Part shown: piece after piece, positions 30,178-53,276 of the stretch
How the letters are laid out: each line of letters starts with the position of its first letter
Position numbering within the stretch: the first letter of the stretch is position 1
Assembly (NCBI GenBank): GCA_044344255.1
Contig: JBIJDH010000018.1
Span: 64,001-128,000 of the forward strand
Length of the DNA stretch: 64,000 bases
DNA from: Myxococcota bacterium
GTDB lineage: Bacteria > Myxococcota_A > UBA796 > UBA2385
Direction of reading: 5' to 3'
Translations under genes and position numbers: made by a program
The notes under the pieces: generated by a model
Database searches by the model: none
Told to the model about the DNA's origin: nothing
What the model saw: the letters and a program-made list of their open reading frames with translations, nothing else

Positions 30178-30401
30178 GGGGGCTCCATCCGGGCGGGGCT
30201 CGGGCCTATCGCGGGGGCTTTTCGGAGGCACCTCCGGTGGGCGCATCGTCTGCGGTGGCGCGCCCCCTGGTCGGGACTGCGCAGACGAGGGCCGGCGTAA
30301 ACCAATTGTGCGAGGCGGGCCGCGGGGGCGCGCCGCCCAGGAGCGCGGACAGATGAGCGGATAAGCCGTGGCGGCATCCTGGCGACCCGAAGGAACCGCG
30401 C

Positions 30402-34012: not shown

Positions 34013-34156
34013 GCGCGCGCATAACACCCGCGCGACACGGTTGCGGCAGGCTTGGGGCGGCTGAGCTATTGTGCAGGACCTCTGGAACGTGGGCGGAGCC
34101 GGAGGGCAAGCGGCGCGCGCCACCCGGAGATCCGGGCGGCGGAGGAGAGGGGCGCG

Positions 34157-36346: not shown

Positions 36347-37710
36347 CCGCGCTCCGGGGGTGGGTCGATCCCGGGTCGGGCTCCTCCGTCCGGGCCGTCC
36401 TCCTGACGGTGGGCTTCGGCCTCCTGGTGGGCCTCGGCCTCGCCTTGCGGCCCGGCCTCGGGGCCGTGGCGCTCGGCGGCGGGCTCCTCGCCCTGGCCGC
36501 GCTGCGGTGGCCCCCGCTGCTCGTCGCCCTGATGTTCACCGGCATCCTCTTCGACCGCATCGGCCTCACCGGCGTCAAGTTGGCCGACTTTCCGGTGACG
36601 GCCTCCAAGCTCACCGTGCTCGGGAGCCTCGGCCTCTGGGTGCTGCACGCGGCGCTCTATCGGACCAGCCCGGTGCGCGGGCACCGCGTGCTGACCACGA
36701 TGGCCGTGGTGGTGCTGTCCACCGGCCTCTCCATCGCCTGGAGCGGCACGATGAAGGTGGGCAAGTTCACCCTCTTCGGGCTCGGGATGATGACGGTGCT
36801 CGTCGGGCTGGTCTACGCGGTCTTGACGGAGCGCTCGCTGCAGCCCCTGCTGCGGATCTTCGGGCTGGTCTTCTCGGTCGTTCTGGCCTTCGCGCTCCTG
36901 GGCGGCGGGGGAGGCAGCGGGGAGGCGGCCCGGGCCTCGGGGACGATGGGGGACCCGAACGAGTGGGCCGCGATGGTGCTGCTCGTGGTGCCCTTCTTGC
37001 TCGGCGGCCTCGCCCGTGACCCCCACCCGCTCATCCGCCCCCTGCGGATGGGCCTGTTCTTGATGACCCCCCTCGCGGTGCTGCAGAGCGAGTCTCGGTC
37101 GGCGCTGCTGGTCTTCGCCCTCGTCCTTCCGGGGCTCCTGTTTTTGCTCCGGGAGCGCCGGGGTGAGCTCGGCCTCTGTGCGGCGGCAGGGGTGGTCGCG
37201 GCGCCGCTGGTCGTCGACCTCAGCACCGCCTTCGCGCGCTTCGAACGGCTCCTGCGCGTGCTCGGCGGTGACCACCTCGGCCAGGACGGCAGCATCTCCG
37301 AGCGCACCGAGCTCTTGCGCCAGGGGCGGGAGCTCTTCCTCGAGCACTGGCTGCTCGGGGCGGGCCCTGGGAACTTCTCGCGGGCGACCGGCTTCATCGG
37401 CGAGAACGGCAAGCTCCGACCCGCCCACAACACCTACCTCGAGGTCGCGAGCGAGCAGGGCGTCGTGGGCCTCGTGCCCTTCGCGGTCTGCATGGTGACG
37501 GTGGCCGTCACCCTGATCACGGCCTATCGACGGGCGCCCACCCTCGAGGACCGCAGCCGCGTGGGCGGCGCGATCGTCGGCCTCGCCGCCTTCGCGCTGA
37601 TGGCGGCCACCCTCGGCCTGCTCACCTTCTCGATGGCCTATCTCCTGCTCGGGCTCGCCCTGGCCTTCGTGACCCAGGCCGAGCGGGCGCCCGGGGCCGC
37701 CTCGCCATGA
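36343..37710 (+). CDS. O-antigen ligase / Wzy polymerase family protein
   Basis: About 12 TM segments; GDPNEWA, SESRSA, LGAGPGNF, AHNTYLEVASEQG. Confidence 0.88.
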   Translation: MTALRGWVDPGSGSSVRAVLLTVGFGLLVGLGLALRPGLGAVALGGGLLALAALRWPPLLVALMFTGILFDRIGLTGVKLADFPVTASKLTVLGSLGLWVLHAALYRTSPVRGHRVLTTMAVVVLSTGLSIAWSGTMKVGKFTLFGLGMMTVLVGLVYAVLTERSLQPLLRIFGLVFSVVLAFALLGGGGGSGEAARASGTMGDPNEWAAMVLLVVPFLLGGLARDPHPLIRPLRMGLFLMTPLAVLQSESRSALLVFALVLPGLLFLLRERRGELGLCAAAGVVAAPLVVDLSTAFARFERLLRVLGGDHLGQDGSISERTELLRQGRELFLEHWLLGAGPGNFSRATGFIGENGKLRPAHNTYLEVASEQGVVGLVPFAVCMVTVAVTLITAYRRAPTLEDRSRVGGAIVGLAAFALMAATLGLLTFSMAYLLLGLALAFVTQAERAPGAASP

Positions 37711-39248
37711 GCGCAGGCGAGGGCCCCGCCAGTTCGGCCGCTTCGCCGGCCGCCGCCTCGCCCGTCGTCGCCTCGCCCGTCGTCGCCTCGCCCGTCGTCG
37801 CCACGTCGGGGCGCGGCGGGAACCTCGTCGCGCTCGGCCTCGGCCAGTCGGTGCGAATGCTGTCGGGCTTCGCGGTCAACGTGATGCTGATGCGCTCGCT
37901 CGGCGTGGAGGGCTTCGGGATCTACGGCACCGTCATGAACCTCGTGGGGCTGCTCGGCTTCGGGGCCCACCTCGGCATGAGCCGCCTCCTCGTGCGACAG
38001 ATCGCCCGCGATCCGGCGCGGCTCCACGAGCGGGTGCAGACGGGCCTCCTCGCCACGGCCCTGCTCTCGACGCTCACGGCTTGCGGGATGGTGCTCTCCG
38101 CCCTCACCCTCGACGGCCGGCCGCTCGTGGTGGGGGCCACCGTGCTGGCGGCGGTGGCGATGGGCCTCCAGTCCTTGGCGATGGTTCCTGAGGCGGCCTT
38201 TCACGGGCTCCGTCAGATGGGGCTCTCTGCCCGCGGACAGGTCGCGGGGCGGCTGGTGCTCATGCTGGCCACCGCCCTCTTCTTGTGGTCCGAGCTCGGG
38301 GTGCTCGCCGTGTTCGTCGCCCAGGTGGCCGACGCCCTGGTCGCCTTCGGCCTGCTCTGGTGGGCCTTCCGGGTGGGGGCCCCCCCGCCGGAGGTCGCCG
38401 CTGTCGGGGCCCTGCCCGTCGCCCTGCCCGTCGCTCTGCCCCCGCGGCGGGAGCGGGTGCGCGACCTCGTGCGTGAGGCGCTGCCCTTCGGTGCTAACGC
38501 TCTCTTCGGCGCCATCTACTTGAGCGCAGATGTGCTCCTGCTCGCGCGTTTGCATGGCGACGCCGAGGTGGGCGTCTACCGCGGCGCGGTGATGCTGATC
38601 AGCCTCTTCCCCGTCATCGCCAACACGCTCACCACCGCGATCTACCCGAGGTTGGCCCTCCACATCGGCGCGCCCGAGCGGGCAGGGGAGGAGCTCGGCT
38701 TCCTCTCGCGGGTCCTGCTCGCGCTGAGCGCTCCGGCGGCGGTGGGCGGGGTGCTCCTCGCCACCCCGCTGATGCTGCTGTTCGGCGGGCCGGCCTTCGC
38801 GGAGAGCGGCCTGCCCTTTCAGATCCTGGCGCCGCTCCTCCCCCTCCGCTTCCTGAACAATGGCTACGCCACCGCGCTCACCAGCCTCGACCGCCAGGGC
38901 GACCGCACCCGGGGTGTGTTCATCGCCGCCCTGCTGAACGTGGGCCTCAACGTCCTCGTCCTGCCTCGCTTCGGGGCGGTGGGGGCGGCCGCGACCACGC
39001 TCCTGACGGAGCTCTTCCTGACCGCTTGGATGGGCTGGCACGTCCGCCCGCTCGTCTCCGGCCTCCGACTGCCCGAGACGTTGCTGCGGGTGGCGCTGCC
39101 CTCCCTCGGCATGGGCCTCGCCCTCTCGGTGCTGCCACCCGCGCCGGTGCTGGTGCACATCGCGGCCGGAGGAGCGCTCTTCCTTGTCCTCGGCCGCTGG
39201 AGCGGCGCCTGGCGCCCGGCCGATCTCCGTCGCCTCCGGAGGGTTTAA
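37707..39248 (+). CDS. Wzx flippase (polysaccharide biosynthesis family)
   Basis: RSLGVEGFGIY, EVGVYRGA, LNVLVLPRFGAVGAA; many TM segments; N-terminal ASPVV x3 micro-repeat. Confidence 0.9.
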   Translation: MSAGEGPASSAASPAAASPVVASPVVASPVVATSGRGGNLVALGLGQSVRMLSGFAVNVMLMRSLGVEGFGIYGTVMNLVGLLGFGAHLGMSRLLVRQIARDPARLHERVQTGLLATALLSTLTACGMVLSALTLDGRPLVVGATVLAAVAMGLQSLAMVPEAAFHGLRQMGLSARGQVAGRLVLMLATALFLWSELGVLAVFVAQVADALVAFGLLWWAFRVGAPPPEVAAVGALPVALPVALPPRRERVRDLVREALPFGANALFGAIYLSADVLLLARLHGDAEVGVYRGAVMLISLFPVIANTLTTAIYPRLALHIGAPERAGEELGFLSRVLLALSAPAAVGGVLLATPLMLLFGGPAFAESGLPFQILAPLLPLRFLNNGYATALTSLDRQGDRTRGVFIAALLNVGLNVLVLPRFGAVGAAATTLLTELFLTAWMGWHVRPLVSGLRLPETLLRVALPSLGMGLALSVLPPAPVLVHIAAGGALFLVLGRWSGAWRPADLRRLRRV

Positions 39249-40400
39249 GTGCCGATCGTCGAGCTCATCCCCAGCCTCACCGTCGGCGGTGCCGAGCGGG
39301 TGGTCACGTTGCTCTCTCTGGCGCTGCGCGCCGAGGGGGCGGCGGTCACGGTGGTGTCTCTGGGGGGGCCCACCGGGAGCTGGCTCGAGGCGGAGCTCGC
39401 CGCTGGCGGCGTGCCCATGCGCTTCCTCGGCAAGGGCCCGGGCTTCGAGCCGCGGATCATCCCTCGCCTCGGGCTCACCCTCGCGCATCTCCGGCCGCGG
39501 GTGGTCCACAGCCACCTGCACACCCTCAAGTACCTGCTGCCGGCCCACATCGGCGCGCCCCGCTCGGTGATGGTGCACACGCTGCACAACGTCGCCCTCC
39601 GCGAGGCCACGACCGCCGATCGCCGGCTCCAGCAGCTCGCCTTTCGGCTGGGCGTCGTGCCGGTGTCGATCGGGGATGCGGTCAGCGAGAGCTTCCGCGC
39701 GGTCTACCGCCTGCCGGAGCCCTCCCTCATCCCGAACGGCATCCCAGTCGCCACCTACGCGCGACCCGCGACCCCCCGCGAGGCGCTGCGGGCCCGCCTC
39801 GGCGTCGGCCCAGACACGCCGGTGCTGCTGAGCGTCGGGCGCCTCAACGCCCAGAAGGACCCCTGCGCCCTCGTCCTCGCCTTCGCCGATCCGCGGCTCC
39901 GCGCGCTCGGCGCCCGCCTCTGGATCGCCGGGGAGGGGGAGCTCCGGGCCGAGGTGGAGGCCGAGGTGCAGCGCGCTGGCCTCGAGGGCGTCGTCACGCT
40001 CCTCGGTGTCCGATCAGACGTGCCCGATCTGCTCGCCGCCGCCGACGTCTTCGTCCTCGCGTCGCGCTACGAGGGCAACCCGCTCGTCGTGATGGAGGCG
40101 ATGGCCGCGGGGCGGCCCGTGGTGGCCACCGCCGTGGGCTGCCTGCCAGAGCTCGTCTCGGACGAGACCGGCCGCCTCGTGCCTGCAGGGGACGGCCCTG
40201 CCCTCTCCGCCGCGATGGTGGCCCTCGCCGGCGATCGGCGGTTGGCGGACCGGCTCGGGGCCGCCGCCGCCGCTGTGGCCCTCGCGCGTTTTGACGTGCG
40301 GGTGATGGCCCGCGCCTACCGGGCCCTCTTCGACCGGCTCCGCCCGGAGGAGGCCCGGCCGGCCTCGGGTGTTAGTCAGGCTGCCTCTACCCCCTCCTGA
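39249..40400 (+). CDS. Glycosyltransferase family 4
   Basis: GGAERV, IPNGI, GRLNAQKD, EGNPLVVMEAMAAGRPVV. Confidence 0.93.
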   Translation: MPIVELIPSLTVGGAERVVTLLSLALRAEGAAVTVVSLGGPTGSWLEAELAAGGVPMRFLGKGPGFEPRIIPRLGLTLAHLRPRVVHSHLHTLKYLLPAHIGAPRSVMVHTLHNVALREATTADRRLQQLAFRLGVVPVSIGDAVSESFRAVYRLPEPSLIPNGIPVATYARPATPREALRARLGVGPDTPVLLSVGRLNAQKDPCALVLAFADPRLRALGARLWIAGEGELRAEVEAEVQRAGLEGVVTLLGVRSDVPDLLAAADVFVLASRYEGNPLVVMEAMAAGRPVVATAVGCLPELVSDETGRLVPAGDGPALSAAMVALAGDRRLADRLGAAAAAVALARFDVRVMARAYRALFDRLRPEEARPASGVSQAASTPS

Positions 40401-40412
40401 GCGTACACCCCG

Positions 40413-41303
40413 ATGTCCCGCCTCACCCTCCCGCTTTGCCTCGTGCTCTCGTCGAGCGGGTTGGCGGTCGGCGCCGCCGGCCCGGCCCGGGCCGGGGAGA
40501 CCGCGACGCCGGTGTCCGCGACGTCGGAGGCCCCGCCGCCCGACGAGGCGGGCGCTGCGGTCGGGCCGCTCGACCGATCGGCGGGGCGGTATCGTTTTGG
40601 CCCCGGTGACACGCTCCGGATCGAGGTCTTCGGGGAGGCCAACCTCACGGGGGTCTTCCCCGTGAGCGACGCGGGCGAGCTCGACTACCCCCTGCTCGGC
40701 GTGCTCAAGGTCGAGGGCCTGACCGCCGCCGAGGTCACCGCGCTCCTGCACGACCGGCTCAAGGATGGCTACCTCTCGAACCCGAGGGTCATGGCCCGGC
40801 CCGAGAGCTACCTCTCCAAGCCCGTGCAGGTGCTCGGAGCGGTCCCCAAGCCGGGCATGTACTACCTCCGCGGCGAGACCACCTTGCTCGAGCTGCTCGC
40901 CTTGGCGGGGGGCGTGAACCGCTCGGGGGTCGGAGAGCTGCGGGTGACCCACAGCGACAGCGCCGTCGCGGTGTCGGTGGTCTCCTACGAGGCGCTGATC
41001 GGGCGCGGCGAGGGCAACCTCACGGTGGCCGGCGGAGACGTCGTCTTCGTGCCTGAGAGCCACGTCACCGTGATGGGGCAGGTCCAGAAGCCGGGCGACG
41101 TCGCCTTCCGCGAAGACCTCACCGTCTCGGCTGCCATCGCCGCCGCAGGCGGGGCGCTGGGCACCGCGAACCTCGGCCGCGTCTACATCCTGCGCGGAGA
41201 CCAGCGCATCCGGGTCGACGTGCGGAAGGCCCTCGCTGGAAAGGTGGAGGACCCCGAGGTGCAGGCAGGAGACCGCATTGTGGTGCGGCAGTCGGTCTTC
41301 TGA
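40413..41303 (+). CDS. OPX/Wza-family polysaccharide export protein (Poly_export plus SLBB domains)
   Basis: YRFGPGDTLRIEVF, YPLLG, VQVLGAVPKPG, VMGQVQKPG, GDRIVV; signal peptide. Confidence 0.9.
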   Translation: MSRLTLPLCLVLSSSGLAVGAAGPARAGETATPVSATSEAPPPDEAGAAVGPLDRSAGRYRFGPGDTLRIEVFGEANLTGVFPVSDAGELDYPLLGVLKVEGLTAAEVTALLHDRLKDGYLSNPRVMARPESYLSKPVQVLGAVPKPGMYYLRGETTLLELLALAGGVNRSGVGELRVTHSDSAVAVSVVSYEALIGRGEGNLTVAGGDVVFVPESHVTVMGQVQKPGDVAFREDLTVSAAIAAAGGALGTANLGRVYILRGDQRIRVDVRKALAGKVEDPEVQAGDRIVVRQSVF

Positions 41304-41450
41304 CGGTCCCCTGCGCGGGCCGGCGCGGCCCGACCCATCCGTGAAGGCGCCGACTGTGGGCTGACTTACATCCGGAGCGCTGGCCTCACTTTTCCCCTCG
41401 ACCGTTGAATGGAACGGCTATCCTACTGATCGCGGCACAGGGGAGAAGCG

Positions 41451-42512
41451 ATGCGGGTCTTGGTCACCGGGGGCGCTGGCTATATTGGTGCGCACCTCGT
41501 GGTCGATCTGCTGGCGGCGGGCCATCAGGTGACCGTGGTCGATGACCTCAGCACGGGGAGCCGAGAGGCGCTGCGGCGCAGCTCTCTATTGGCGGGGCGC
41601 TCCTGTCGACTCATCATCGGTGACGTCGCCGACCGCGCGCTGATGCTGCGCGCCCTGTCTGGGATTGACACCGTCTTTCACCTCGCGGCGCACAAGGCTG
41701 TCGGCGAGTCGATGGAGCAGCCGGAGCGCTACCTTAAGAACAACCTCGGCGGCATGGCCTCTCTCATCGAGGCGATGCAGACGGCGGGCGTGCGGCGGGT
41801 GGTGTACTCCTCCACGGCGGCGGTCTATGGCACCCAGGGGGACGGCCCCCTACGAGAGGACGCGCCGCTCCGTCCCGAGAGCCCCTACGGATACGCCAAG
41901 GCCGAAGGGGAGCGGATGCTCGACTGGATGGTGCGCTGCCGCGGCTGGTCGGCGGTGTCTCTCCGATATTTCAATCCGGTGGGCGCGCACCCCTCCGGCC
42001 TCATCGGGGAGCCCGTCGCCCGGGCCTCCAACCTCGTGCCGAGCGTGCTCGTGGCCCTCACCGAGCCCGACCGGCGGCTCACCATCTTCGGGACAGACTA
42101 CCCCACGCCCGACGGCACGGGCCTCCGCGACTTCATCCATGTCTGTGACCTCTCTCGGGCCCACCTCGTCGCCCTCCAGGCCCTGGAGCGCGCGGGGCAC
42201 CACGTCTACAACGTCGGCACCGGGCGCCCGAGCAGCGTCCGCGAGGTGCTCACCGCCTGCGCGCGGGCAGCGGGGCGCGACGTGCCCTTTGTGCTCGGCC
42301 CGCGTCGGGCGGGAGACGTCGCGGTGGCCGTCGCCGATCCGCGGCGCTTCCAGTCCGAGCTCGGCTTCAGCGCCCGCCTCAGCCTGGACGACATGGTGGG
42401 CTCGGCCTGGCGCTGGTGGACGCTCAATCCCCAGGGCTACGACGTGAATGAGCCGGCCGGCATGGCACGGTACGAGGGGGCCGACGAGCTCTCCCCGGTG
42501 AGCGTCTGGTGA
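41451..42512 (+). CDS. galE: UDP-glucose 4-epimerase
   Basis: VTGGAGYIG, KAVGES, YSSTAAVYG, YGYAK, LRYFNPVGAH, DYPTPDGTGLRDFIHV. Confidence 0.95.
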   Translation: MRVLVTGGAGYIGAHLVVDLLAAGHQVTVVDDLSTGSREALRRSSLLAGRSCRLIIGDVADRALMLRALSGIDTVFHLAAHKAVGESMEQPERYLKNNLGGMASLIEAMQTAGVRRVVYSSTAAVYGTQGDGPLREDAPLRPESPYGYAKAEGERMLDWMVRCRGWSAVSLRYFNPVGAHPSGLIGEPVARASNLVPSVLVALTEPDRRLTIFGTDYPTPDGTGLRDFIHVCDLSRAHLVALQALERAGHHVYNVGTGRPSSVREVLTACARAAGRDVPFVLGPRRAGDVAVAVADPRRFQSELGFSARLSLDDMVGSAWRWWTLNPQGYDVNEPAGMARYEGADELSPVSVW

Positions 42513-44744: not shown

Positions 44745-46484
44745 GTGGAGGTTCCGATGGGGGGCACCAGTCCGGTGGCGCGAGGTCCGCTCGGGGCGGC
44801 GGAGGCCGAGGCCGCCGGGGGCCTGCGCCGGCGCAGGGGCTACCTTCGCGGGGCCTTCGTGGTGGAGCACGCCCCGGCCGGGCCGACCGCGCGCCACGCC
44901 GCCATCCTTGTCCTGCCGCCGCTCGGCTACGAAGACACGAGCGCGTATCGTCCCCTCCGCGTGCTGGCCGACACGCTGGCGGCGAAGGGGTACTCCGTCT
45001 GGCGCCTCGACTGGCCGGGCCTCGGGGACAGCGCGGGAGAAGCGGAGACCCCCAATCTCTTCGAGTCCATGCGCGCCGCCGTCTCCGAGGCCGTCGCCGC
45101 GCTGCGAGCGCGGGGGCACGGGCGGATCATCGGCGTGGGCGTGCGCGGCGGGGCGCTCTTCGCCCTCGCGGAGCCGGGGCTGGACGACCTCATCCTCTGG
45201 GGCCTCCCCGCCAGCGGGCGGGCCTGGGTGCGGGAGGAGCGCGCCTTCCACCGGATGGCGGCCCGGGCCTTCGGCGCGGCGCCCGCCGGGGCTACCCCGC
45301 CGGCGGGGGCCCTCGAGGCGGGCGGCTTCGGCTTCAGCGCCGAGACGGTATTGGGCATCGAGGGCCTGGACGCCGTCACCCTCGCCGCGCGGGCCGGTCG
45401 CGGGCGCGTGCTCCTCATCCCGCGCGAGGGCAGCACCCCCGCCGCCGCGCTGCGGAGCGCCTTCGAGGCCAGCGGGGCCGCGCTCACGCTCAGCGAGGCG
45501 GGCGGCGTCGGAGATCTCCTCGAAGACCCCTACCGCGCTGCTCTCCAGCCGCGGGTGAGCGAGGCGATCCTCGACTGGCTGCCGGCGGAGGAGGGCCGGC
45601 TGCCGCTCGGACCCGCCCGCTGGGCACCCTCGATCACCTTCGACGGGCAGGTTCGGGAGCGCCCGTGGATCGCCGCCGGCGGGAGCGGGGAGCTCTCGGG
45701 AATCCTCTGTGAGCCCGCGGGCGGCGCGGGGCCCGGCGCGCGGTGGGTGATCTTCTACAACGCGGGCGGGGTGCGCCGCTCCGGCCCGAACCGCCTCTGG
45801 ACCCGCGCCGCGCGCGCCCTCGCCCGGGCCGGCCGCCCCTCCCTGCGCATCGACGTGCGCGACGTCGGCGACAGCGACGGCGCCCACGCCCCCCACAAGG
45901 ACCTCGAGGCGATGTACAGCGAGGCCTCGATCGCCGACGCCCTCCTCGCGTACGATCACGCCGTCGCCGCCGGGGCCGGCGCGGTCGATGTCGTGGGCCT
46001 CTGCTCGGGGGCCTTCCTCGGCGCCCAGGTCGCGGCCCGGCGTCGGGTGCGGCGGGCGCTGCTCTTCAACGGCCTCGCCTTCGTCTGGAACGAGGACGCG
46101 AAGGCGAGCGGCATGACGGCGCAGATCGGCCGCTCCCTCCTCGACGCCCGGCGCTGGCGGCGCCTCCTGAGCGGGCGGATCGATCGGGTCGCGCTCGTCC
46201 GCTCGATGGCGGTCAAGGCCCGGATGAAGGCCGAGGCCTCCCTCACCCGCCTCCGCGGCGGTGAGGTAGAGAGCGAGGTCTCCCAGCTCTTCCGGCTGAT
46301 CCACGCCCAGGGCACCCTCACGGAGCTGGTGTCGAGCGAGGGCGATCCGAGCATCGCCTACCTCGAGCGGCTGGTGGCGGCGCCGCTCCGTCCACCGCTC
46401 ACGGTGATCCCCGGGGTGGATCACACGATTCGCCCGCTCTGGGCACATGAGCGGGTGGTCGCGCTGGTGCTCGGCGAGGGTTGA
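44745..46484 (+). CDS. Tandem alpha/beta-hydrolase fold protein (two domains)
   Basis: Domain 1 LDWPGLGDS, GVRGG; domain 2 IDVRDVGDSDG, GLCSG, IPGVDHT. Confidence 0.82.
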   Translation: MEVPMGGTSPVARGPLGAAEAEAAGGLRRRRGYLRGAFVVEHAPAGPTARHAAILVLPPLGYEDTSAYRPLRVLADTLAAKGYSVWRLDWPGLGDSAGEAETPNLFESMRAAVSEAVAALRARGHGRIIGVGVRGGALFALAEPGLDDLILWGLPASGRAWVREERAFHRMAARAFGAAPAGATPPAGALEAGGFGFSAETVLGIEGLDAVTLAARAGRGRVLLIPREGSTPAAALRSAFEASGAALTLSEAGGVGDLLEDPYRAALQPRVSEAILDWLPAEEGRLPLGPARWAPSITFDGQVRERPWIAAGGSGELSGILCEPAGGAGPGARWVIFYNAGGVRRSGPNRLWTRAARALARAGRPSLRIDVRDVGDSDGAHAPHKDLEAMYSEASIADALLAYDHAVAAGAGAVDVVGLCSGAFLGAQVAARRRVRRALLFNGLAFVWNEDAKASGMTAQIGRSLLDARRWRRLLSGRIDRVALVRSMAVKARMKAEASLTRLRGGEVESEVSQLFRLIHAQGTLTELVSSEGDPSIAYLERLVAAPLRPPLTVIPGVDHTIRPLWAHERVVALVLGEG

Positions 46485-46613
46485 ACTCGGTCGCTCCAAT
46501 TCCCTTGCGGAGCGCGTGGGTTCGGGCGAAGTTCGCTGCGCGGCCAGGGCCCTTCGTCACGAACAAGGACCCCCTCCTCCACGGGTCGTGGAGCGTCGAT
46601 CACCGGAGTCTCC

Positions 46614-46865
46614 GTGTCCACCGTCGAACCCATTGATTATGTTCGGGAGATCCTGGCAAAGCATGGCCGCCTCTCGGCGGACGTGATGAGCCTCGCCCCC
46701 GCTGATGACCTCTACGCGGTGGGCCTCACCTCGCTCACCACTGTCCACATCATGCTGGCCCTCGAAGACCAGTTCGGGGTCGAGTTCCCCGATCGCCTCC
46801 TCGGTCGAAAGACCTTTGGGAGCATCCAGTCCATCGTCGAGGCCGTGGAAGAGCTGGTCGGCTGA
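46614..46865 (+). CDS. Acyl/amino-acid carrier protein
   Basis: 83 aa; DLYAVGLTSL (phosphopantetheine Ser), LEDQFGVEFPD; GGAG SD. Confidence 0.93.
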   Translation: MSTVEPIDYVREILAKHGRLSADVMSLAPADDLYAVGLTSLTTVHIMLALEDQFGVEFPDRLLGRKTFGSIQSIVEAVEELVG

Positions 46866-46903
46866 CCCTCCCGTCGCACCCCGCCGTCCGAAGGACAAGC
46901 GCC

Positions 46904-48088
46904 ATGGAACATTCGAGTCCCCCCGCCGTTCGCCTGCGCGAGCTCACCCGGCGGCTCCATGAGATCGGCCGGGACGTGGTGGCGCCGCACGCCGCCGCGG
47001 TCGATCGCGACGCCCGCTTCCCCCACGAGGCCTTCGCGGCCTTAAAGGCCGAGCGCCTGCTGTCCTGCTTCGTCCCCGAGGCCTACGGCGGCATGGGGCT
47101 GCACTTCAGCGAGCTCACCCGGCTCTGCGAGGTGCTGGGGCTCTACTGCGGCTCGACGGCGATGGTCTTCGCGATGCACCAGATCCAGGTGGGCTGCGTG
47201 GTGCACCACGCCACCGGCTCGCCGGTCTTCGAGGACCTCCTCCGTGAGCTCTGCCGGGAGCAGCTCGTGATGGCCTCCGCCACGACCGAGCTCGGCATCG
47301 GCGGTGACGTGCGCACGAGCCGCTGCGCGGTGCGGGTCGAAGGAGACCGCTACCTGCTCGAGAAGCAGGCGCCGGTCATCTCCTACGCCGACCACGCTGA
47401 CATCATCCTCGTGACCGCCCGCCGCGCCCCCGACGCCGCGCCGGGTGACCAGGTGCACGTGATGGTGCGGCGGTCCGAGTGTACGCTCGAGCCCCTCTCC
47501 ACCTGGGACACCCTCGGCTTCCGCGGCACCTGCAGCATCGGCTACACGCTGCGCGCGGAGGGTCCGGTCTCGAACATCCTGCCGGTCCCCTACGCCGAGA
47601 TCCACCAGAAGACGATGCATCCCTTCTCCCACATCGTCTGGAGCGCCCTCTGGCTCGGCATCGCCACCGACGCGGTGCAGCGGGCGCGGGCGTCCGTGCG
47701 GGCGGAGGCGCGGAAGACCCCAGGCACGCTGCCGCCCTCGGCGATGCGCTTGGCCGAGCTTGACACCGTGCTCTTCACGATGCGCAGCGGCGTCGAGGCG
47801 GTGCTCGCTGACTACCAGGCCCGGCTCCACCGCTTCGCGGGCGAGCCCTTCCCCTCCGACTACGGCTTCTCGCTCCGCGTGAGCAACCTGAAGGTCACCG
47901 CCTCCACGCTGATCATCGAGATCGTGGGCAAGGCGATGCTCATCGCCGGCATCACCGGCTACCGCAACGACGCCCCAGGCTCGCTCTGCCGCCACCTGCG
48001 GGACGCGTACGGGGCCTCGCTGATGGTCAGCAACGAGCGCATCCTGGGACAGAGCTCCACCATGCAGATCCTCCATCGGGAAGGGTGA
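46904..48088 (+). CDS. Acyl-CoA dehydrogenase family protein (carrier-protein associated)
   Basis: AAAVDRDARFPHEAF, VPEAYGGMG, WDTLGFRGTCS, RHLRDA. Confidence 0.9.
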   Translation: MEHSSPPAVRLRELTRRLHEIGRDVVAPHAAAVDRDARFPHEAFAALKAERLLSCFVPEAYGGMGLHFSELTRLCEVLGLYCGSTAMVFAMHQIQVGCVVHHATGSPVFEDLLRELCREQLVMASATTELGIGGDVRTSRCAVRVEGDRYLLEKQAPVISYADHADIILVTARRAPDAAPGDQVHVMVRRSECTLEPLSTWDTLGFRGTCSIGYTLRAEGPVSNILPVPYAEIHQKTMHPFSHIVWSALWLGIATDAVQRARASVRAEARKTPGTLPPSAMRLAELDTVLFTMRSGVEAVLADYQARLHRFAGEPFPSDYGFSLRVSNLKVTASTLIIEIVGKAMLIAGITGYRNDAPGSLCRHLRDAYGASLMVSNERILGQSSTMQILHREG

Positions 48089-48092
48089 GGCC

Positions 48093-49022
48093 ATGAGCTG
48101 TCTCAGCGGTGAAGATCCGCAGCGCGCCTATCAGGACGACCTCGTCGCCGCCGGGCTGCTGCTCCGGCTCGGTGCCCAGGGGCTCTATGCCCGCAGCGGC
48201 GTCTTCGAGGGGGTGATCCGGCAGTTCGAGGCCTACGTCCACCGCGCCGCCCCGCCCGTCGACGCCACTTGGCGCCTGCCGCCGGTCTTCGCCCGCGACC
48301 ACTACTGCGGCATCAACCACATCTACAACTTCCCCGATCTGCTCGGCTCCATCGACGAGTTCAAGGGGGCCGACCGCGAGCACCAGGCCCTCCTCCGTGC
48401 CTTCGAGAAACGAGAGGAGGGGGAGGACTGGACCCGCTCGCTCGGCCCCTCCAACCTGATGATGGTGCCGGCGGCCTGCTACCCGATCTACCCGACGCTC
48501 ACGGGCACGCTCCCCCCGGGCGGGCGGCTGATCGACCTCCAGGGCTTCGTGTTTCGCAACGAGCCCTCGGACGACCCCTGTCGGATGCTCATCTTCCGCC
48601 AGCAGGAGTATGTCTGCGTGGGGACGCCGCAGGCGGCCCTCGACCACCGCGACGCCTGGATCGAGCGCGGCCTCGTGCTGCTGCGGGCCCTGGGGCTGCC
48701 AGTGGAGTCGGTGGTCGCCAATGACCCCTTCTTCGGCCGGGGGGGCCGCCTCGCCAAGGCCACGCAGCGGGAGCAGACCCTCAAGTTCGAGCTGGTGGTG
48801 CCGGTCACCTCCGAGGAGCGGCCCACGGCGGTCACCTCCTCGAACTGCCACCTCGACTACTTCGGGGGGGCCTTCGACATTCGCACCGACGACGGTGAGC
48901 TCGCCCACTCGGCCTGCGTGGGCTTCGGGATCGAGCGGGTGGCGCTCGCCCTGTTTCGGCACCACGGCTTCGACGTCTCCGCCTGGCCCGCCGCGGTCCG
49001 GCGCCTGCTCGAGCTCGGCTGA
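48093..49022 (+). CDS. Amino acid:[acyl-carrier-protein] ligase (seryl-tRNA synthetase-like, no tRNA-binding domain)
   Basis: 309 aa class II aaRS core only; PAACYP, motif 2 FRNEPS, FRQQEY, ANDPFFGRGG, motif 3 HSACVGFGIER; same operon as the ACP. Confidence 0.92.
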   Translation: MSCLSGEDPQRAYQDDLVAAGLLLRLGAQGLYARSGVFEGVIRQFEAYVHRAAPPVDATWRLPPVFARDHYCGINHIYNFPDLLGSIDEFKGADREHQALLRAFEKREEGEDWTRSLGPSNLMMVPAACYPIYPTLTGTLPPGGRLIDLQGFVFRNEPSDDPCRMLIFRQQEYVCVGTPQAALDHRDAWIERGLVLLRALGLPVESVVANDPFFGRGGRLAKATQREQTLKFELVVPVTSEERPTAVTSSNCHLDYFGGAFDIRTDDGELAHSACVGFGIERVALALFRHHGFDVSAWPAAVRRLLELG

Positions 49023-49088
49023 GACCCTGGCGCTCCGCCGCGCCCGGCCCCCGCCCGACGATAGACCCTCGACCCTGGAGACCGGGCC

Positions 49089-50063
49089 ATGCCGCGAGTC
49101 GCCCCGCTCGACCCCTCGACCTATGTCCGCCACCGTACGCACCAGCCGGGGCGGACCTGGGCCGAGACCAACTGTTACACCGACGTCGTCATCGAGCTCC
49201 TCCACGGGCTCGGCCACGAGCCGCTCGCCGCGCTCCCCTTCACGCTGACCATCGACCTCGACGTCGACCAGTGGACCTTCTTCAAGTTCCCCCACCAAGA
49301 CATCGCGGCCCTCTACGCCCTGGGCGTCCACGAGCTCGCCCCCTGGCGCCCGCTCGTCGAGCACCTCGAGGAGCTGGCCGCGGCCGGCCTGCCTGTGCTG
49401 GTGGAGCTCGACTCCTTCTACCTCCCCGACACCGCGGGCTCGGCCTATGGGCTGGCTCACGTCAAGTCGACGGTGGCGGTCAATGAGGTCGACCGGGCGC
49501 GCGGCGGCCTCGGCTATTTCCACAACCAGGGCTATCACTGGCTCGAGGGACAGGACTTCCTGGACGTCCTGCAGGTGGGGGGCCTCGTGCACCCGCGCAT
49601 GATGCCGCCCTACATCGAGATCGTGAAGCCGCTGCCGCGGGCGCGGGCCCTGCGGGGGGCGGACCTCGTCGAGGGCTCCCTCGCGGTGCTCCAGCAGCAG
49701 CTCCGCCTCCGCCCGGAGACGAACCCCTTTCGACGCTTTCGGGTGAAGTTCGAGGCGGATATGCCTGGACTGCTCGAGGCCGACCTCGAGCACTTCCACG
49801 CCTACTCCTTCGCGACGCTGCGTCAGTACGGGGCCTGCTACGAGCTGGCCTCCACCTATCTCAGCTGGCTCGGCGAGCAGGGCGTAGATGGTCTCCAGTC
49901 GGCGGTGGACGACCTCGGTCACATCTCCACCGCCACCAAGGCCCTCCAGCTCCGGCTGGCCCGCTCGATGATGCGCAAGAAGGCGCTCGACCTCTCGGTC
50001 CTCGACGAGCTCGCCCTCCGCTGGGACGCGGCGATGGAGCTGCTGGTGGCCCGCCATGGCTGA
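49089..50063 (+). CDS. DUF1839 family protein
   Basis: WAETNCYTD, DQWTFFKFP, ELDSFYLPDTAG, HVKST, YFHNQG, YSFATLRQYGA; position next to the aa:CP ligase. Confidence 0.85.
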   Translation: MPRVAPLDPSTYVRHRTHQPGRTWAETNCYTDVVIELLHGLGHEPLAALPFTLTIDLDVDQWTFFKFPHQDIAALYALGVHELAPWRPLVEHLEELAAAGLPVLVELDSFYLPDTAGSAYGLAHVKSTVAVNEVDRARGGLGYFHNQGYHWLEGQDFLDVLQVGGLVHPRMMPPYIEIVKPLPRARALRGADLVEGSLAVLQQQLRLRPETNPFRRFRVKFEADMPGLLEADLEHFHAYSFATLRQYGACYELASTYLSWLGEQGVDGLQSAVDDLGHISTATKALQLRLARSMMRKKALDLSVLDELALRWDAAMELLVARHG

Positions 50064-52608
50064 GCGCGGCGGCGCTGCCCGCCAGATTGAGCTGCTCCAC
50101 TGCGGGTGGACCCTGCTCGGCACCCTCCCCGGGGCCTTCGCGGGCCCGTCCGAGCTCCCCGAGGTCGGCTGGGGGCCGGCGGTGGTGCCGGGCACGGTGG
50201 CCCAGGCCCTCCGCCTCGATCTCGACCGCCCGCCCGACCTCGAGGCCGAGGACTGGTGGTACCGCTGCACCCTCCCGGCGGGGCCGTCGGGCGGGGACAT
50301 GGCGGTGCTCTGCCTCGATGGCCTCGCCACCCTCGCCGAGGTCTTCCTGAACGGGGAGCGGCTGCTCGTCTCCCGCTCGATGTTCCGCCGGCACCGCCTC
50401 CGGGTGGAGCTCCGGGGCGACGACGCGCTGGCGATCTGCTTCCGCGCCCTCCGCCCCGAGCTCGAGCGGCGGCGCCCCCGCCCGCGCTGGAAGGCGGCGC
50501 TCGTGGAGGAGGGGAACGTCCGCTGGCTGCGCACGACGCTGCTCGGGCGCATCCCCGGCTGGACGCCGCGGCTCCCCCCGGTGGGCCCCTATCGGTCGAT
50601 CCGTCTGGAGCGTTGGGACGCGGTGGCGCTGCGGCGCCTGGAGCTCAGCCCCCGCCTCGACGGGGACCTCGGGCGCGTCGGCCTCTCCGCCGAGCTCCGC
50701 CCCCTGGAGGGGGTGACCGTCACCGCCGCCCGCCTGTCGGTGGGGGAGTGGGACTTCCCGCTCGCGCTCGTGCCGGGCGAGGACGAGGCCGGGGCGCCGG
50801 TGCTGGGCGTGCAGGCCGAGGTCTATCTGCAGGACCCCCCGCGCTGGTGGCCCCACGGCCACGGGGCGCAGCCGCTGTTGCCCACCGCGCTGCACCTCGA
50901 GACCTCGGTGGGAGAGCGGGTGATCGACTGTGGGCCGGTCGGCTTCCGTTCGGTCTCGCTCGACCGCGAGGGGGGCCGGGTCTCGCTCCGCGTGAACGGG
51001 CGGGCCATCTTCTGTCGCGGCGCCTGTTGGACCGTGGAGGACGCCCGCAGCCTCGACGGGCCGCCCGGCGCTATCACCGCCACGCTCCGCCGAGCCCGCG
51101 AGGGCGGCCTGAACATGCTGCGCATCGGCGGCACGATGGTCTATGGGAGCGACGAGCTCTATCAGGCGGCGGACGCGCTCGGTGTCCTCGTCTGGCAGGA
51201 CCTCTCCTTCGCCAACCTCGACTACCCCTTCGCGGACCCTGATTTTTGCCGCGAGGCCACGGAGGAGGTGGAGGAGCAGCTCCGCCGCCTCCGCCGGCAC
51301 CCGAGCCTCGCGGTCTGGTGCGGGAACAGCGAGATCCAGCAGCAGGTGGCGATGCTCGGCCTGCCGCGGGAGCTGTGGGCCGACCCCTTCTTCACCGAGG
51401 CCGTGCCCGACCTCGTCCGCGCCCTGCACCCGGGCGCGGCCTACTTCCCCTCCACGCCCTGTGAGGGCGCCCTCCCCTTTCACACCGCGACCGGCCTCAC
51501 CCACTACTATGGGGTCGGGGCCTATCGGCGGCCCCTCTCCGATGTCCGGGCGGCCCGGGTGCGCTTCAGCCCCGAGTGCCTCGGCTTCTCGAACGTGCCC
51601 GACCAGCTCGCCCTCGAGCGGTTGAGCGGCGGCGCCCTGCCGCTCCCGCACCAGCCCGCCTGGAAGGCCGGCGTGCCGCGGGACGCCGGCGCGGGCTGGG
51701 ACTTCGAGGACGTGCGAGACCACTATCTCCAGTCCTTGTTCGGGGTTGACCCTGTCGCGCTCCGCAGCGTCGATCCGGAGCGTTACTTCGCCCTCTCCCG
51801 CGCCGTCACCGGCGAGCTGATGTTGCGGGTCTTCGCCGAGTGGAGGCGGCCGGCGGGCCCCCGCGGCGACGGCGGCAGCGGCTGCGGCGGCGCCCTCGTC
51901 TGGTTCTTGAAGGACCTCCGCCCCGGCGCCGGCTGGGGCATCCTCGACGACCAGGGTCGCCCGAAGGCGGCCTATTGGTACCTCCGCCGCGCCTGGGCGG
52001 GCCGCGCGGTCTTGATGACCGAGGAGGGGCAGGACGGCGTCGATCTGCACGTCCACAACGAGCACCCTGAGCCCCTGGTGGCCACGGTGGAGCTCGAGCT
52101 GCTGCGCGGGGGGCGCCAGCGGGTCGGCTGGGCGGCCCACCCCGTCACGCTCGAGCCCTGGGGCGCCCTCACCCTGCAAGGGGACGCCTTGCTCCCCTCC
52201 TTCTCTGACCTCGCCCTGGCCTATCGTTTCGGGCCGCCGGGCCATGACGTCGTGGTGGCGCGGCTCGTCGGGGAGGGGGGCGCGCTCCTCCACGAGGACG
52301 CCGTCTTCCCGGGCGGGCACACGCTGCGGCCGGTGGAGGTCGGCGCCCTCCGCGCCCACGTCGCGCCCGCCGCCGACGGCGCGCTTTGGCTGCACCTCCG
52401 CGCCGAGGCCTTCCTCCAGACCGTCACGATCACGAGCCCGGGCTGGGAGGTCGAGGAGGACTGCCTCCACCTCTCTCCGGGGCGAGAGCGGGCGCTGCGC
52501 CTGACCGCGCTGCCGGTCGCCGCGGGGGCGCGGGCCCGGCCCTTCAAGGCGGAGGTGAGCGCGCTCAACCTCGAGGGCAGCCTGACCGTGCGGGGGCCCG
52601 CCGCCTGA
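50056..52608 (+). CDS. Glycoside hydrolase family 2 protein (beta-mannosidase-like)
   Basis: DGLATLAEVFLNG, WWPHGHGAQPL, VGFR, RGACW, NMLRIGG, VWQD, HPSLAVWCGNSE; no signal peptide. Confidence 0.88.
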   Translation: MAERGGAARQIELLHCGWTLLGTLPGAFAGPSELPEVGWGPAVVPGTVAQALRLDLDRPPDLEAEDWWYRCTLPAGPSGGDMAVLCLDGLATLAEVFLNGERLLVSRSMFRRHRLRVELRGDDALAICFRALRPELERRRPRPRWKAALVEEGNVRWLRTTLLGRIPGWTPRLPPVGPYRSIRLERWDAVALRRLELSPRLDGDLGRVGLSAELRPLEGVTVTAARLSVGEWDFPLALVPGEDEAGAPVLGVQAEVYLQDPPRWWPHGHGAQPLLPTALHLETSVGERVIDCGPVGFRSVSLDREGGRVSLRVNGRAIFCRGACWTVEDARSLDGPPGAITATLRRAREGGLNMLRIGGTMVYGSDELYQAADALGVLVWQDLSFANLDYPFADPDFCREATEEVEEQLRRLRRHPSLAVWCGNSEIQQQVAMLGLPRELWADPFFTEAVPDLVRALHPGAAYFPSTPCEGALPFHTATGLTHYYGVGAYRRPLSDVRAARVRFSPECLGFSNVPDQLALERLSGGALPLPHQPAWKAGVPRDAGAGWDFEDVRDHYLQSLFGVDPVALRSVDPERYFALSRAVTGELMLRVFAEWRRPAGPRGDGGSGCGGALVWFLKDLRPGAGWGILDDQGRPKAAYWYLRRAWAGRAVLMTEEGQDGVDLHVHNEHPEPLVATVELELLRGGRQRVGWAAHPVTLEPWGALTLQGDALLPSFSDLALAYRFGPPGHDVVVARLVGEGGALLHEDAVFPGGHTLRPVEVGALRAHVAPAADGALWLHLRAEAFLQTVTITSPGWEVEEDCLHLSPGRERALRLTALPVAAGARARPFKAEVSALNLEGSLTVRGPAA

Positions 52609-52646: not shown

Positions 52647-53276
52647 ATGTTCATCGGATGGCTCCTGATCGCGCTCGGGCTCGCCCGCGGCGCCCCCCGC
52701 CCGCCGCCCGAGGGCTGGACCGACCTGTGCACCCTGCCCGGCCTGCTCTTCGAGGTGGGCTATGCCACGGCGCAGAATTTCACCGGGGCGCCGCTCCCTG
52801 GCTATGGCGAGCCCGGAGCCTGGCTGCGGAGCGCCCCCGCCGCCGCCCTGGCCGGGGCTCAGCGGGCGGCCGAGGGAGAGGGTCTCGCGATCCTCGTCTA
52901 TGACGCCTATCGTCCAGAGCGGGCCAGCCGAGCGATGGTCGAGTGGGCGAAGCGGGAGGGCCAGCTCCGTCTTGTCACCGACGGCTACGTCGCGGCCCGC
53001 TCCCGACACAACCGCGGCGTCGCCGTTGACCTCACCCTCGCCCGGGACGGTCAGCCTCTCGACATGGGCACCCCCTGGGACCACTTCTCCGAGGCCAGCC
53101 ATGGTGTCAACGCGGAGGGCCTCCCGCGAGAGAACCGGGACCGCCTCTCCCGTATCCTGGTCGCCGCTGGCTTTCGGCCCTATTCGAAGGAGTGGTGGCA
53201 CTTCTCCTGGCCCGCGGACGCCGCCCCCATCGACATCCCGTACGAGGATGACATCCCTGACGAGGACAGCCCATGA
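52647..53276 (+). CDS. D-alanyl-D-alanine dipeptidase (VanX/DdpX, peptidase M15D)
   Basis: YDAYRP, SRHNRGVAVDLTL, LDMGTPWDHF, EWWHF. Confidence 0.93.
   Translation: MFIGWLLIALGLARGAPRPPPEGWTDLCTLPGLLFEVGYATAQNFTGAPLPGYGEPGAWLRSAPAAALAGAQRAAEGEGLAILVYDAYRPERASRAMVEWAKREGQLRLVTDGYVAARSRHNRGVAVDLTLARDGQPLDMGTPWDHFSEASHGVNAEGLPRENRDRLSRILVAAGFRPYSKEWWHFSWPADAAPIDIPYEDDIPDEDSP

Follow-up and report, generated by a model that had tools for sequence, protein, structure and literature searches.

The closest described relatives of the operon analysed here are those of Bradyrhizobium Bll0957 (PDB 3MEY, 4H2S-Y) and of Agrobacterium Atu2573 with its carrier protein Atu2571 (PDB 2JQ4). Structures of these amino acid:[carrier protein] ligases have been solved since 2010, and a 2022 review states their role as unknown (PMC9437257). 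The cassette gene set and a glycan link were already suggested in PMC10318531, whose supplement describes the gene order carrier-ACAD-ligase-DUF1839-GH2.

An operon of this known type occurs in a freshwater bacterium, within the 64,000-nucleotide stretch of DNA analysed here (the window). It shares with the Bll0957 and Atu2573 operons the ligase family, the Zn ligands, the lack of a tRNA-binding domain, the carrier and the gene order. It differs in having Gly at the Ala281 position, in the tandem hydrolase in front and in being joined to a Wzx/Wzy locus that includes a CE4 gene and a sulfotransferase-GT4 fusion.

Gene Content and Boundaries

The preliminary description placed six co-directional genes here, and all six open reading frames are intact on the + strand, tightly packed and free of internal stops (Table 1). 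Third-position GC of the cassette genes is 0.80-0.95, and four long overlapping ORFs that were tested show a shadow pattern in third-position GC. The GTG 44745 start given for the hydrolase did not hold: a GGAGG lies just upstream of ATG 44757, where the Atlas record also begins, making ATG 44757 the most likely start. As described, no NRPS or PKS domain was found among the 50 ORFs profile-scanned in the window. By hydropathy all six cassette proteins look cytoplasmic, with no multi-pass membrane protein among them.

The cassette was also said to lie immediately after the EPS locus. Two genes separate it from galE. In two relatives (G005 and G022) both genes follow galE without the cassette beside them, so they belong to the EPS locus, and with them counted in, the cassette does adjoin it.

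Table 1. Positions of the cassette genes and of the adjoining polysaccharide locus in the window
Feature	Positions	Strand	Remarks
Wzx/Wzy polysaccharide locus	28219..42512	.	sulfotransferase-GT4 fusion, GT4, priming GT, CE4 deacetylase, Wzc, Wzy, Wzx, GT4, Wza, GalE
Sulfotransferase-GT4 fusion	28219-30246	-	part of Wzx/Wzy locus
CE4 deacetylase	about 32987-34024	-	part of Wzx/Wzy locus
Gene of no known family	42509-43534	+	between galE and cassette; no Pfam/NCBIfam match
Gene of no known family	43511-44575	-	between galE and cassette; no Pfam/NCBIfam match
Tandem alpha/beta hydrolase	44757..46484	+	575 aa; TIGR03101-/TIGR03100-like
Dedicated carrier protein	46614..46865	+	above NF005480 cut-off; Ser40 for phosphopantetheine
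ACAD-fold flavoenzyme	46904..48088	+	Pfam ACAD domains
Amino acid:[carrier protein] ligase	48093..49022	+	309 aa; NF005479, 398 bits
DUF1839 protein	49089..50063	+	PF08893, E 4e-105
GH2, beta-mannosidase clade	50056..52608	+	GH2 N-terminal domain; PDB beta-mannosidase matches

Ligase and Carrier Protein

The ligase lies above the curated NF005479 cut-off of 357 bits, and the carrier scores 98.7 bits against a cut-off of 72 for NF005480; both earlier assignments are thus correct. The ligase matches PDB 3MEY/4H2W at E 1e-73. It aligns with the 527-residue type-2 SerRS only at SerRS residues 310-506 and, judged by sequence, is the catalytic domain of a methanogen-type SerRS without the tRNA-binding domain, as had been noted. 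The Cys/Glu/Cys pattern likewise stands: the motifs PAACYP, FRQQEY and HSAC hold C129, E172 and C275, which align with Bll0957 and are invariant in 82/82 ligases. The equivalent residues of Bll0957 bind zinc. Gly277 occupies the position of Bll0957 Ala281, and 81 of the 82 aligned ligases have Gly there. An A281G result on Bll0957 reportedly bears on amino-acid choice; if residue 277/281 is read in this way as the choice site, Gly277 would point to Ala or Ser, not Gly only, as substrate.

The top PDB match of the carrier is Atu2571 (E 3e-17), and its phosphopantetheine Ser is present in 72/72 aligned proteins. Against the DltC profile it scores 26 of 68 bits. Three PPTase-domain matches occur elsewhere in the genome.

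Predicted Modifying Enzymes

The flavoenzyme has the three-domain ACAD fold with Pfam N, M and C domains and FAD motifs (profile matches at E 4e-24). V375 stands at the C-terminal Glu position (V or I in 78/78 aligned) and S242 at the helix G position (S, A or T in 78/78), columns that we take to be the catalytic Glu positions of the MCAD and IVD types; H243 is kept in 78/78. The catalytic Glu of a canonical acyl-CoA/acyl-ACP alpha,beta-dehydrogenase is absent from both positions in all 78. Lack of the Glu base would fit a role in C-alpha/N oxidation or desaturation.

Cys29, Asp108 and His145 are invariant in 72/72 DUF1839 proteins, and a C(T/S)H site is described in PMC10318531. Pfam BtrH_N is weakly matched by 46/123 family members (E up to 1, best 0.0029) and the next family by 5/123; the window's protein itself has no match. 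Against BtrH_N/DUF4872 clusters, with predicted models on both sides, Atlas features give 0.96 and TM is 0.72-0.74 over ~300 residues; against DUF6005 the TM is 0.66. On these models DUF1839 is papain-like with a full-length BtrH-like fold, and it is predicted to be a carrier-dependent amide-forming transferase. The family is large, with 3085 relatives among 8000 candidates scored.

Profile comparison of the GH2 protein with PDB beta-mannosidases gives E 1e-107 to 1e-88. Its catalytic Glu residues E426 and E507 (acid/base and nucleophile) are both kept in 59/59, E507 aligning with the Glu-to-Gln site of 2WBK, and S425 and P167 are equally invariant. PGW, G358, S425 and F617 replace WDW, the W of RxWGG, the N before the acid/base and the Q of WQ, which we take to be mannose-binding residues. 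Its residues thus describe a GH2 enzyme with an altered sugar pocket, in which the catalytic pair is kept and mannose binding appears lost. Hydropathy gave no signal peptide.

The tandem hydrolase scores below the cut-offs of both TIGR03100 (72.2 bits, cut-off 168.45) and TIGR03101 (69.2 bits, cut-off 202.75). In its N-domain, GVRGG aligns with the esterase motif GFSLG, and this domain is predicted to be inactive because Arg134 occupies the nucleophile position. The C-domain has Cys420-Asp534-His560 (residues numbered from GTG 44745). Conservation among 55 aligned proteins is 54 for R134, 55 for C420, 52 for D534 and 53 for H560. The protein is 26% identical (E 2e-24) to a hydrolase inside a B. 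cenocepacia EPS locus, and it is predicted to be a carrier-to-sugar O-acyltransferase.

Linkage to Glycan Loci

The ACAD and DUF1839 genes are each present at 79 of 80 homologous loci from many phyla, the carrier at 72, GH2 at 66 and the hydrolase at 56. Some loci with full flanks lack the hydrolase (L001-L003, L025) and another lacks DUF1839 and GH2 (L065), so an order with two transferases is not universal.

In both samples studied, the neighbourhood of homologous cassettes is enriched 5- to 20-fold in glycan-assembly genes, as the earlier proposal of a polysaccharide link would predict, relative to a background drawn from one genome and with related loci that are not independent. The first sample has 61 loci, each flanked by 5 kb or more; such genes occur at 25 of them (4.5 expected and no more than 11 in any of 2000 draws) and Wzx/Wzy-pathway genes at 16 (0.7 expected and no more than 5). 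With one locus per 80% ligase cluster, the counts are 16/40 (2.9 expected) and 11/40 (0.5 expected). A second set, scanned with fixed profiles, gives 10/24 (1.5 expected) and 4/24 (0.26 expected). Counting against a glycan role, the flanks examined hold no glycosyltransferase or Wzx/Wzy gene at 36/61 and 14/24 loci, and no such glycan gene is found in 4 of 7 annotated plasmid or chromid regions with the cassette.

Of 61 related genomes compared, nine carry the cassette, and 8 of these 9 also have the same Wzy orthologue; the cassette occurs in 1 of 43 genomes without that orthologue. Because 10 of the 18 genomes with Wzy have no cassette, the cassette looks accessory. In G001 and G019 it borders this EPS locus as well, at different junctions; in G005 and G022 the two lie on separate contigs, which counts against linkage. 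Relatives without the cassette (G050, G020, G011) have other carrier-protein acylation modules at this EPS locus.

The cassette is also embedded in a Cupriavidus EPS locus and in the Burkholderia Bep-type locus (Bcam1330-1350; becA-R). The latter has the same five genes, between CRP-type and sigma-54 regulators, and, within the core bep cluster, the same tandem hydrolase as a TIGR03100-like gene; it differs from the window in its glycosyltransferase set and regulators. An amide should survive NaOH extraction of the kind used for Bep. According to PMC7084887, Bep was extracted in 0.3 M NaOH, and the published repeat contains only Gal, Glc and Man, with no amino sugar and no substituent. Alkali extraction and the lack of amino sugar leave an ester possible and disfavour an amide on the Bep polymer. 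With becF-J equated with the cassette by gene order, PMC5507470 reports that transposon insertion into becG, the ACAD gene, gives smooth colonies and reduced biofilm (0.84 vs 1.25), the weakest effect in its table; becG is not among the complemented mutants, and becF, the inferred carrier gene, received no insertion in the screen. The available text of the bep and bec papers does not recognise the cassette, with 0 mentions of Bcam1343-1348 in that of PMC3584217.

Proposed Function and Alternatives

There is about an even chance, in our estimate, that the six-gene operon builds an amino-acid-derived acyl group and esterifies it to a repeat-unit sugar in the cytoplasm. The ligase would adenylate a small amino acid and load it onto the carrier phosphopantetheine, as shown for Bll0957/Atu2573. 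The FAD enzyme may then act on the loaded unit, either by oxidation at C-alpha/N or by desaturation; this is the weakest step of the scheme. BtrH-like DUF1839 would make an amide via Cys29, most likely on the amino group of the loaded unit, which would thereby be capped. The hydrolase, through its Cys420 domain, would release the finished acyl group from its thioester and place it on a hydroxyl of a sugar in the lipid-linked repeat, ahead of the Wzx flip, and GH2, with its widened pocket, may remove or recycle substituted sugars. The cassette would be an accessory module, able to act from elsewhere in the genome.

Alternatively, DUF1839 itself may be the final transferase, moving the (oxidised) aminoacyl group to an amino-sugar amine, either nucleotide-linked or unmasked by CE4 in the repeat, with the hydrolase as an editing thioesterase. 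The modelled BtrH-like fold, the CE4 gene present both in the adjoining EPS locus and among relatives, and the tighter tie of DUF1839 to the core (79/80 vs 56/80 for the hydrolase) favour this arrangement, as BtrH is an ACP:aminoglycoside acyltransferase (PMC10318531). We nonetheless consider it unlikely, given the position of the hydrolase among core bep genes and the Bep repeat as published, on which an amide should have outlasted extraction. It is similarly improbable that the product is a small molecule or a lipid (an N-acyl amino acid, aminoacyl glycoside or glycolipid) released by the hydrolase or GH2, with EPS adjacency reflecting shared biofilm regulation. Such release would fit a biosynthetic operon that includes both a glycosidase and a hydrolase, which counts against the ester reading; most cassettes stand alone, having no glycan gene in the flanks examined, the Burkholderia cassette lies between CRP-type and sigma-54 regulators, and DUF6005, the closest other family to DUF1839, is found in siderophore clusters. 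The 2023 supplement (PMC10318531) suggests fatty acid or phospholipid processing. This reading is at odds with the way in which the cassette of relatives nearly always accompanies the Wzy orthologue, with repeated attachment to the EPS locus at different ends and with the finding that no exporter, transporter or fatty-acid elongation gene recurs among cassette neighbours. Lack of a recurring transporter also argues against a salvage module without biosynthesis, in which substituted sugars are stripped by GH2 and the hydrolase, and the unit thus freed is broken down by the carrier-bound pathway. Two hydrolase-fold genes, an oxidoreductase and the intact Glu pair of GH2 are compatible with salvage; spending ATP to load a dedicated carrier is the design of a biosynthetic pathway, and biofilm falls when the ACAD gene is lost (PMC5507470), making this explanation very improbable.

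Cytoplasmic esterification of the repeat unit can be extended to a bolder proposal, which is possible but doubtful: a cross-phylum, entirely cytoplasmic glycan acylation of an undescribed kind, in which a class II aaRS paralogue works with an ACAD that has no base, a Cys-nucleophile tandem hydrolase and a BtrH-like transferase. It would place an unusual ester derived from an amino acid on Wzx/Wzy repeats, for example N-capped dehydroalanyl or 2-oxoacyl, with GH2 as substituent-specific proof-reader and the cassette as one of several interchangeable carrier modules docking at the same EPS locus. The substituent would have been missed on Burkholderia Bep because NaOH was used both to extract that polymer and to measure it. 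If the simpler reading, an ester on the repeat unit, is right, a published biofilm polysaccharide structure is incomplete, and thousands of sequences represent a further way to tailor biofilm polymers. DUF1839 would gain a function, as would a hydrolase whose annotation is polymer quality control, and the amino acid:[carrier protein] ligase family would gain a testable job.

Comparison with Known Systems

The exosortase A-associated hydrolase 1/2 pair (TIGR03100, TIGR03101) resembles the cassette hydrolase, a fusion-like counterpart that likewise lies beside EPS genes; the latter is far below both cut-offs, and no exosortase was found among the window ORFs scanned. The preliminary description had proposed a Dlt-like decoration system. 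That likeness holds for the first step, since DltABCD likewise loads a small amino acid onto its own carrier without tRNA, and fails for topology: the cassette has no DltA-type adenylation domain, MBOAT, other membrane protein or exported DltD-like protein, and it adds redox, amide-forming and glycosidase steps. Transfer would therefore be cytoplasmic, nearer to the logic of CloN3/N4/N5/N7, in which an aminoacyl-carrier is oxidised and then moved to a sugar hydroxyl (PMC11218499), and of butirosin BtrI/BtrH (PMC10318531); the shared logic is that an amino acid is loaded onto a stand-alone carrier, modified there and passed to a sugar. Unlike the CloN and Btr systems, the cassette has a class II aaRS paralogue as loader rather than an adenylation domain, an ACAD without the Glu base and, as acceptor, what would be a polymer instead of an antibiotic.

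A Known Operon Beside a Polysaccharide Locus

The window carries a real, intact member of a known operon. All six genes of the preliminary description were found, complete and in the same direction, with successive gaps of 129, 38, 4, 66, and -8 bases, and the genome holds a single copy of the cassette. Library scans bear out the ligase label (NF005479, 398 bits against a cut-off of 357), assign the carrier to NF005480 (98.7 bits against 72), and recognize ACAD domains, DUF1839, and the GH2 N-terminal domain; the two-domain hydrolase resembles TIGR03101 and TIGR03100, both below cut-off. The cassette had been placed immediately after the EPS locus. Two genes in fact intervene after galE, but relatives keep both within the EPS locus. 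The polymer of this locus may be sulfated, since a sulfotransferase-GT4 fusion is kept there. The two additional Wzc/Wza loci of the genome could be further clients of the cassette. A VanX query, made from the gene 3' of GH2, matched none of 80 cassette loci. Long antisense ORFs were rejected as shadows of genes.

Features of the window and of compared loci (L), with the genome (G) where given
Feature	Position	Strand	Content or remark
Cassette	44757-52608	+	six genes
EPS locus, complete Wzx/Wzy type	upstream of cassette		sulfotransferase-GT4 fusion, GT4, priming GT, CE4 deacetylase (minus strand), Wzc, Wzy, Wzx, GT4, Wza, GalE
Gene of no known family	42509-43534	+	lipoprotein-like N-terminus; paralogue on contig C43; conserved in EPS locus
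Gene of no known family	43511-44575	-	beta-propeller-like by eye; conserved in EPS locus
Sulfotransferase-GT4 fusion	28219-30246	-	in EPS locus of most relatives fetched
Far end of EPS locus	25749-27283; 27086-28222	+; -	GT2/nucleotidyltransferase pair; 378-aa unknown
Genes 3' of GH2	52647-54604	+	VanX-like D-Ala-D-Ala dipeptidase (signal-like N-terminus), discoidin-domain protein
Rejected ORFs	33179-34024; 33070-33993	+; 	shadows of CE4 gene
Wzc/Wza loci of window's genome	C18, ~382-390 kb; C21, ~47-56 kb		two more polysaccharide loci
Acyl_transf_3 gene	L134:8808-10004		abutting or near cassette
Annotated acyltransferase	L122:11076-12317		abutting or near cassette
Pel transporter gene	L082:1-850		11.5 kb upstream of stand-alone Caballeronia cassette
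C. metallidurans CH34	L121:13669-29666		non-pathogenic host; full cassette with priming GT, Wzc, ManC, GT87, hydrolase, second DUF1839 copy
G050, cassette-free	L111:452-6274		beside same EPS locus: carrier, PigA/RedW-like dehydrogenase, amino-acid adenylation enzyme, two GNATs
G020; G011, cassette-free	L105:2597-10489; L106:3436-12799		at EPS locus: AMP-ligase, LuxE, LuxC, carrier-like protein, SDR
EPS-locus inserts	L094:14761-16970 (G001); L104:14767-15459		across these two and L105, L106: AMP-binding enzyme + LuxE + LuxC, and 370-aa unknown + 82-aa carrier-like protein + SDR

According to the accessible text of PMC9437257 and PMC5370406, amino acid:[carrier protein] ligases attach Gly, Ala, or Ser to the phosphopantetheine of a carrier encoded with them in one operon, and their biological role is stated there as unknown. 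A search of the open-access literature, which takes in neither the original Mocibob papers nor supplements on bioRxiv, found no published product of the ligase/DUF1839 operon; papers carrying the locus tags include none on function, and the accessible portions of PMC9542644, PMC9684580, PMC5552954, and PMC7474642 do not deal with the cassette. PMC10888616 adds only that bll0957/bll0958 are raised 3-fold when phaR is mutated.

Distribution and Neighborhood of Homologous Cassettes

Conservation was assessed in the top 80 of 310 ligase relatives found among species-representative genomes, which by record title belong to Acidobacteriota, Proteobacteria, Planctomycetota, Verrucomicrobiota, Chloroflexota, Myxococcota, and others. 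By tblastn, ACAD and DUF1839 each accompany the ligase in 79 of these 80 loci; the carrier is present in 72 and GH2 in 66. The tandem hydrolase occurs in 56 and adjoins the cassette in 52 of those, either 5' of the carrier or 3' of GH2. Many missing genes are explained by contig ends; true absences include the hydrolase from L001-L003 and L025 and DUF1839 with GH2 from L065. A separate clade (L146, L148, L150, L152, L155) has carrier-ACAD-DUF1839-GH2 as an operon without ligase; two of its loci, L150 and L155, contain a divergent GINT1_N-domain gene, and L150 also a flavin reductase and a GT2. Acyl_transf_3 genes also abut or lie near the cassettes of L023, L042, L051, and L060, and the acyltransferases beside such cassettes could carry acyl groups across the membrane there. 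Eleven pattern matches on viral contigs yielded no confirmed cassette relative. Matches occur in 20 sequencing runs from 16 studies of lake and river water, three of them flagged as a possible source, with no RNA runs among the matching runs listed.

The survey of homologous neighborhoods proposed in the preliminary description shows glycan-assembly genes to be enriched beside cassettes in two samples. Flanking genes were called with a codon model fitted to each cassette in turn, whose calls for L082 and L083 matched their annotation, and the 610 neighbors were grouped into 404 families. Pfam was scanned at E 1e-9 with 343 family representatives from L001-L081, each 120 aa or longer, and two further L081 proteins; shorter neighbors and families exclusive to L082-L092 lay outside the scan. 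Markers were GT4, GT2, priming GT, Wzx, Wzy, Wza, and Wzc. A marker occurs in 26 of the 80 loci and in 25 of the 61 whose flanks reach 5 kb or more, and a Wzx/Wzy-pathway gene in 16 of these 61. Sites drawn at random from the genome of the window, a thin background of one genome, give expectations of 4.5 and 0.7 loci at matched flank lengths, with maxima of 11 and 5 in 2000 draws; the background profiles recovered 22 GT4 genes (Pfam, 22) and 18 GT2 genes (Pfam, 24; the set was completed with the other six). The excess persists when each 80% ligase cluster contributes a single locus (marker 16/40, 2.9 expected; pathway gene 11/40, 0.5 expected), and likewise for 72% clusters (7/16, 1.3 expected; 4/16, 0.2 expected). 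For replication, 80 metagenome loci were collected via a DUF1839 alignment. Of these, 8 repeated loci of the first set and 48 had less than 5 kb of flank; without them 24 remained. Ten have a marker (1.5 expected) and four a pathway gene (0.26 expected), values that none of 2000 draws reached. Among seven annotated plasmid or chromid regions hand-picked from 65 records, the cassette lies inside an EPS locus in three (B. cenocepacia L081, C. metallidurans L121, B. gladioli L123) and in the other four it does not.

Nesting in Related Genomes

The window's genome was compared within a set of 61 genomes drawn from its family and order, which may overlap with the 80 loci. DUF1839 and the hydrolase are each found in 8 of the 61; one or both occur in nine genomes in all. 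Orthologues of the window's Wzy with at least 42% identity, a line set at a gap after inspection of the list, occur in 18 genomes (26 with weaker matches); these include eight of the nine cassette carriers, the ninth being an assembly in 900 contigs. With the window's own genome removed, the cassette is present in 7 of 17 genomes with this Wzy versus 1 of 43 without (Fisher p 3e-4, overstated by kinship). The cassette is missing from ten of the 18 Wzy-orthologue genomes, and completeness is 90% or higher in five of these ten. The GH2 end of the cassette adjoins galE in G001 and the sulfotransferase-GT side of the EPS locus in G019; the cassette is ~10 kb from the EPS locus in G048, and on a different contig with unrelated flanks in G005 and G022.

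Because cassette-free relatives hold other carrier modules at the EPS locus, we infer that this locus has an accessory decoration slot. The module of G050 also includes a 352-aa protein without a family assignment, and its dehydrogenase scores 353 bits, below cut-off; the whole resembles a module of the pyrrole-2-carboxyl type placed beside polysaccharide genes. The EPS locus of G020 has a PPTase within it. In cassette-free G033 and G035, the annotated part of the EPS locus has no carrier module.

The Burkholderia Bep/bec Locus

In B. cenocepacia L081, five cassette genes stand between CRP-type regulators and an opposite-strand sigma-54 activator, surrounded by priming GT, ManC, GT4s, Wzc, Wzx, and the tandem hydrolase. 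The accessible text of PMC3584217 lists Bcam1334 as TIGR03100-like, with a guess at polymer quality control, and makes no mention of Bcam1343-1348. As far as the available portion of PMC5507470 goes, a biofilm screen hit every becA-R gene except three, and insertion in becG, an ACAD gene between cNMP-binding and sigma-54 regulators, gave smooth colonies and an OD of 0.84 versus 1.25. Gene order suggests that becG is the cassette ACAD. Its effect is the weakest in the table of that paper, and it is outside the three complemented mutants; becF, the putative cassette carrier, is an unhit gene. In the accessible part of PMC7084887, the Bep repeat is Gal-Glc-Gal-Man, unsubstituted, after extraction in 0.3 M NaOH and measurement in NaOD.

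Protein Anatomy

The Cys/Glu/Cys pattern described earlier for the ligase, C129/E172/C275, is invariant in 82 of 82 aligned ligases. The substrate is likely to be Ala or Ser, as judged from sequence, because G277 (81 of 82) stands at the site of an Ala in Bll0957, where A281G reportedly widened the substrate range to Ala and Ser. The closest match of the carrier is Atu2571. The ACAD keeps its FAD motifs and invariant H92, H243, N377, and R379, but at the columns that we take to hold the catalytic Glu of MCAD and IVD it has Val/Ile and Ser/Ala/Thr, respectively, in 78 of 78 sequences. A canonical α,β-dehydrogenase was rejected for lack of this base at either column; amine oxidation would require no such Glu. 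A DnmZ-like two-component flavin monooxygenase is not favored, as true ACADs score above it (88 versus 68 bits) and a flavin reductase is beside only one annotated locus (L150).

DUF1839 has C29, D108, and H145 in 72 of 72 sequences. BtrH_N is its sole recurring Pfam match, weak, in 46 of 123 members, and its profile matched no PDB sequence up to E 5. Atlas comparison of predicted models with BtrH_N+DUF4872 clusters (0.96; TM 0.72-0.74) points to a BtrH-like fold. In the hydrolase, the first nucleophile elbow has Arg aligned to the esterase Ser (54/55), and the second has Cys420 (55/55), together with D534 and H560. Transferases that depend on a thioester, PHA synthase for example, employ a Cys at this elbow. 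GH2 falls in the β-mannosidase clade with both Glu in 59 of 59. In what is presumably its mannose pocket, WDW has become PGW, and W, N, and Q have become G, S, and mostly F; these smaller residues may make room for a substituted sugar.

Proposed Pathway and Alternatives

In the best reading, held with about even confidence, the ligase would load an amino acid on the carrier, as demonstrated for homologues. The bound unit would then be oxidized, N-capped by DUF1839, and passed by the Cys420 domain of the hydrolase to a hydroxyl of the lipid-linked repeat, with GH2 in an editing role. Esters would be lost in the NaOH and NaOD used for Bep; amides should survive. A direct amide to an amino sugar is considered unlikely, a small molecule or lipid as the product equally unlikely, and a salvage module very improbable. 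Against a glycan link, no marker was seen in the flanks of 36 of 61 loci in the first set and 14 of 24 in the second. The link had been hinted at in 2023; the controlled counts, the nesting in related genomes, and a mutant from the literature speak for it, and it can now be tested directly.

The likeness to Dlt drawn in the preliminary description extends only to the loading step: Dlt-type export is rejected because membrane parts are missing from the cassette. A crude hydropathy scan of all six proteins found neither a signal peptide nor more than one membrane span in any of them, the hydrolase having one marginal segment. The closest working analogues of the proposed pathway are CloN3/4/5/7 of clorobiocin, from the accessible text of PMC11218499, and BtrI/BtrH of butirosin, rather than Dlt.
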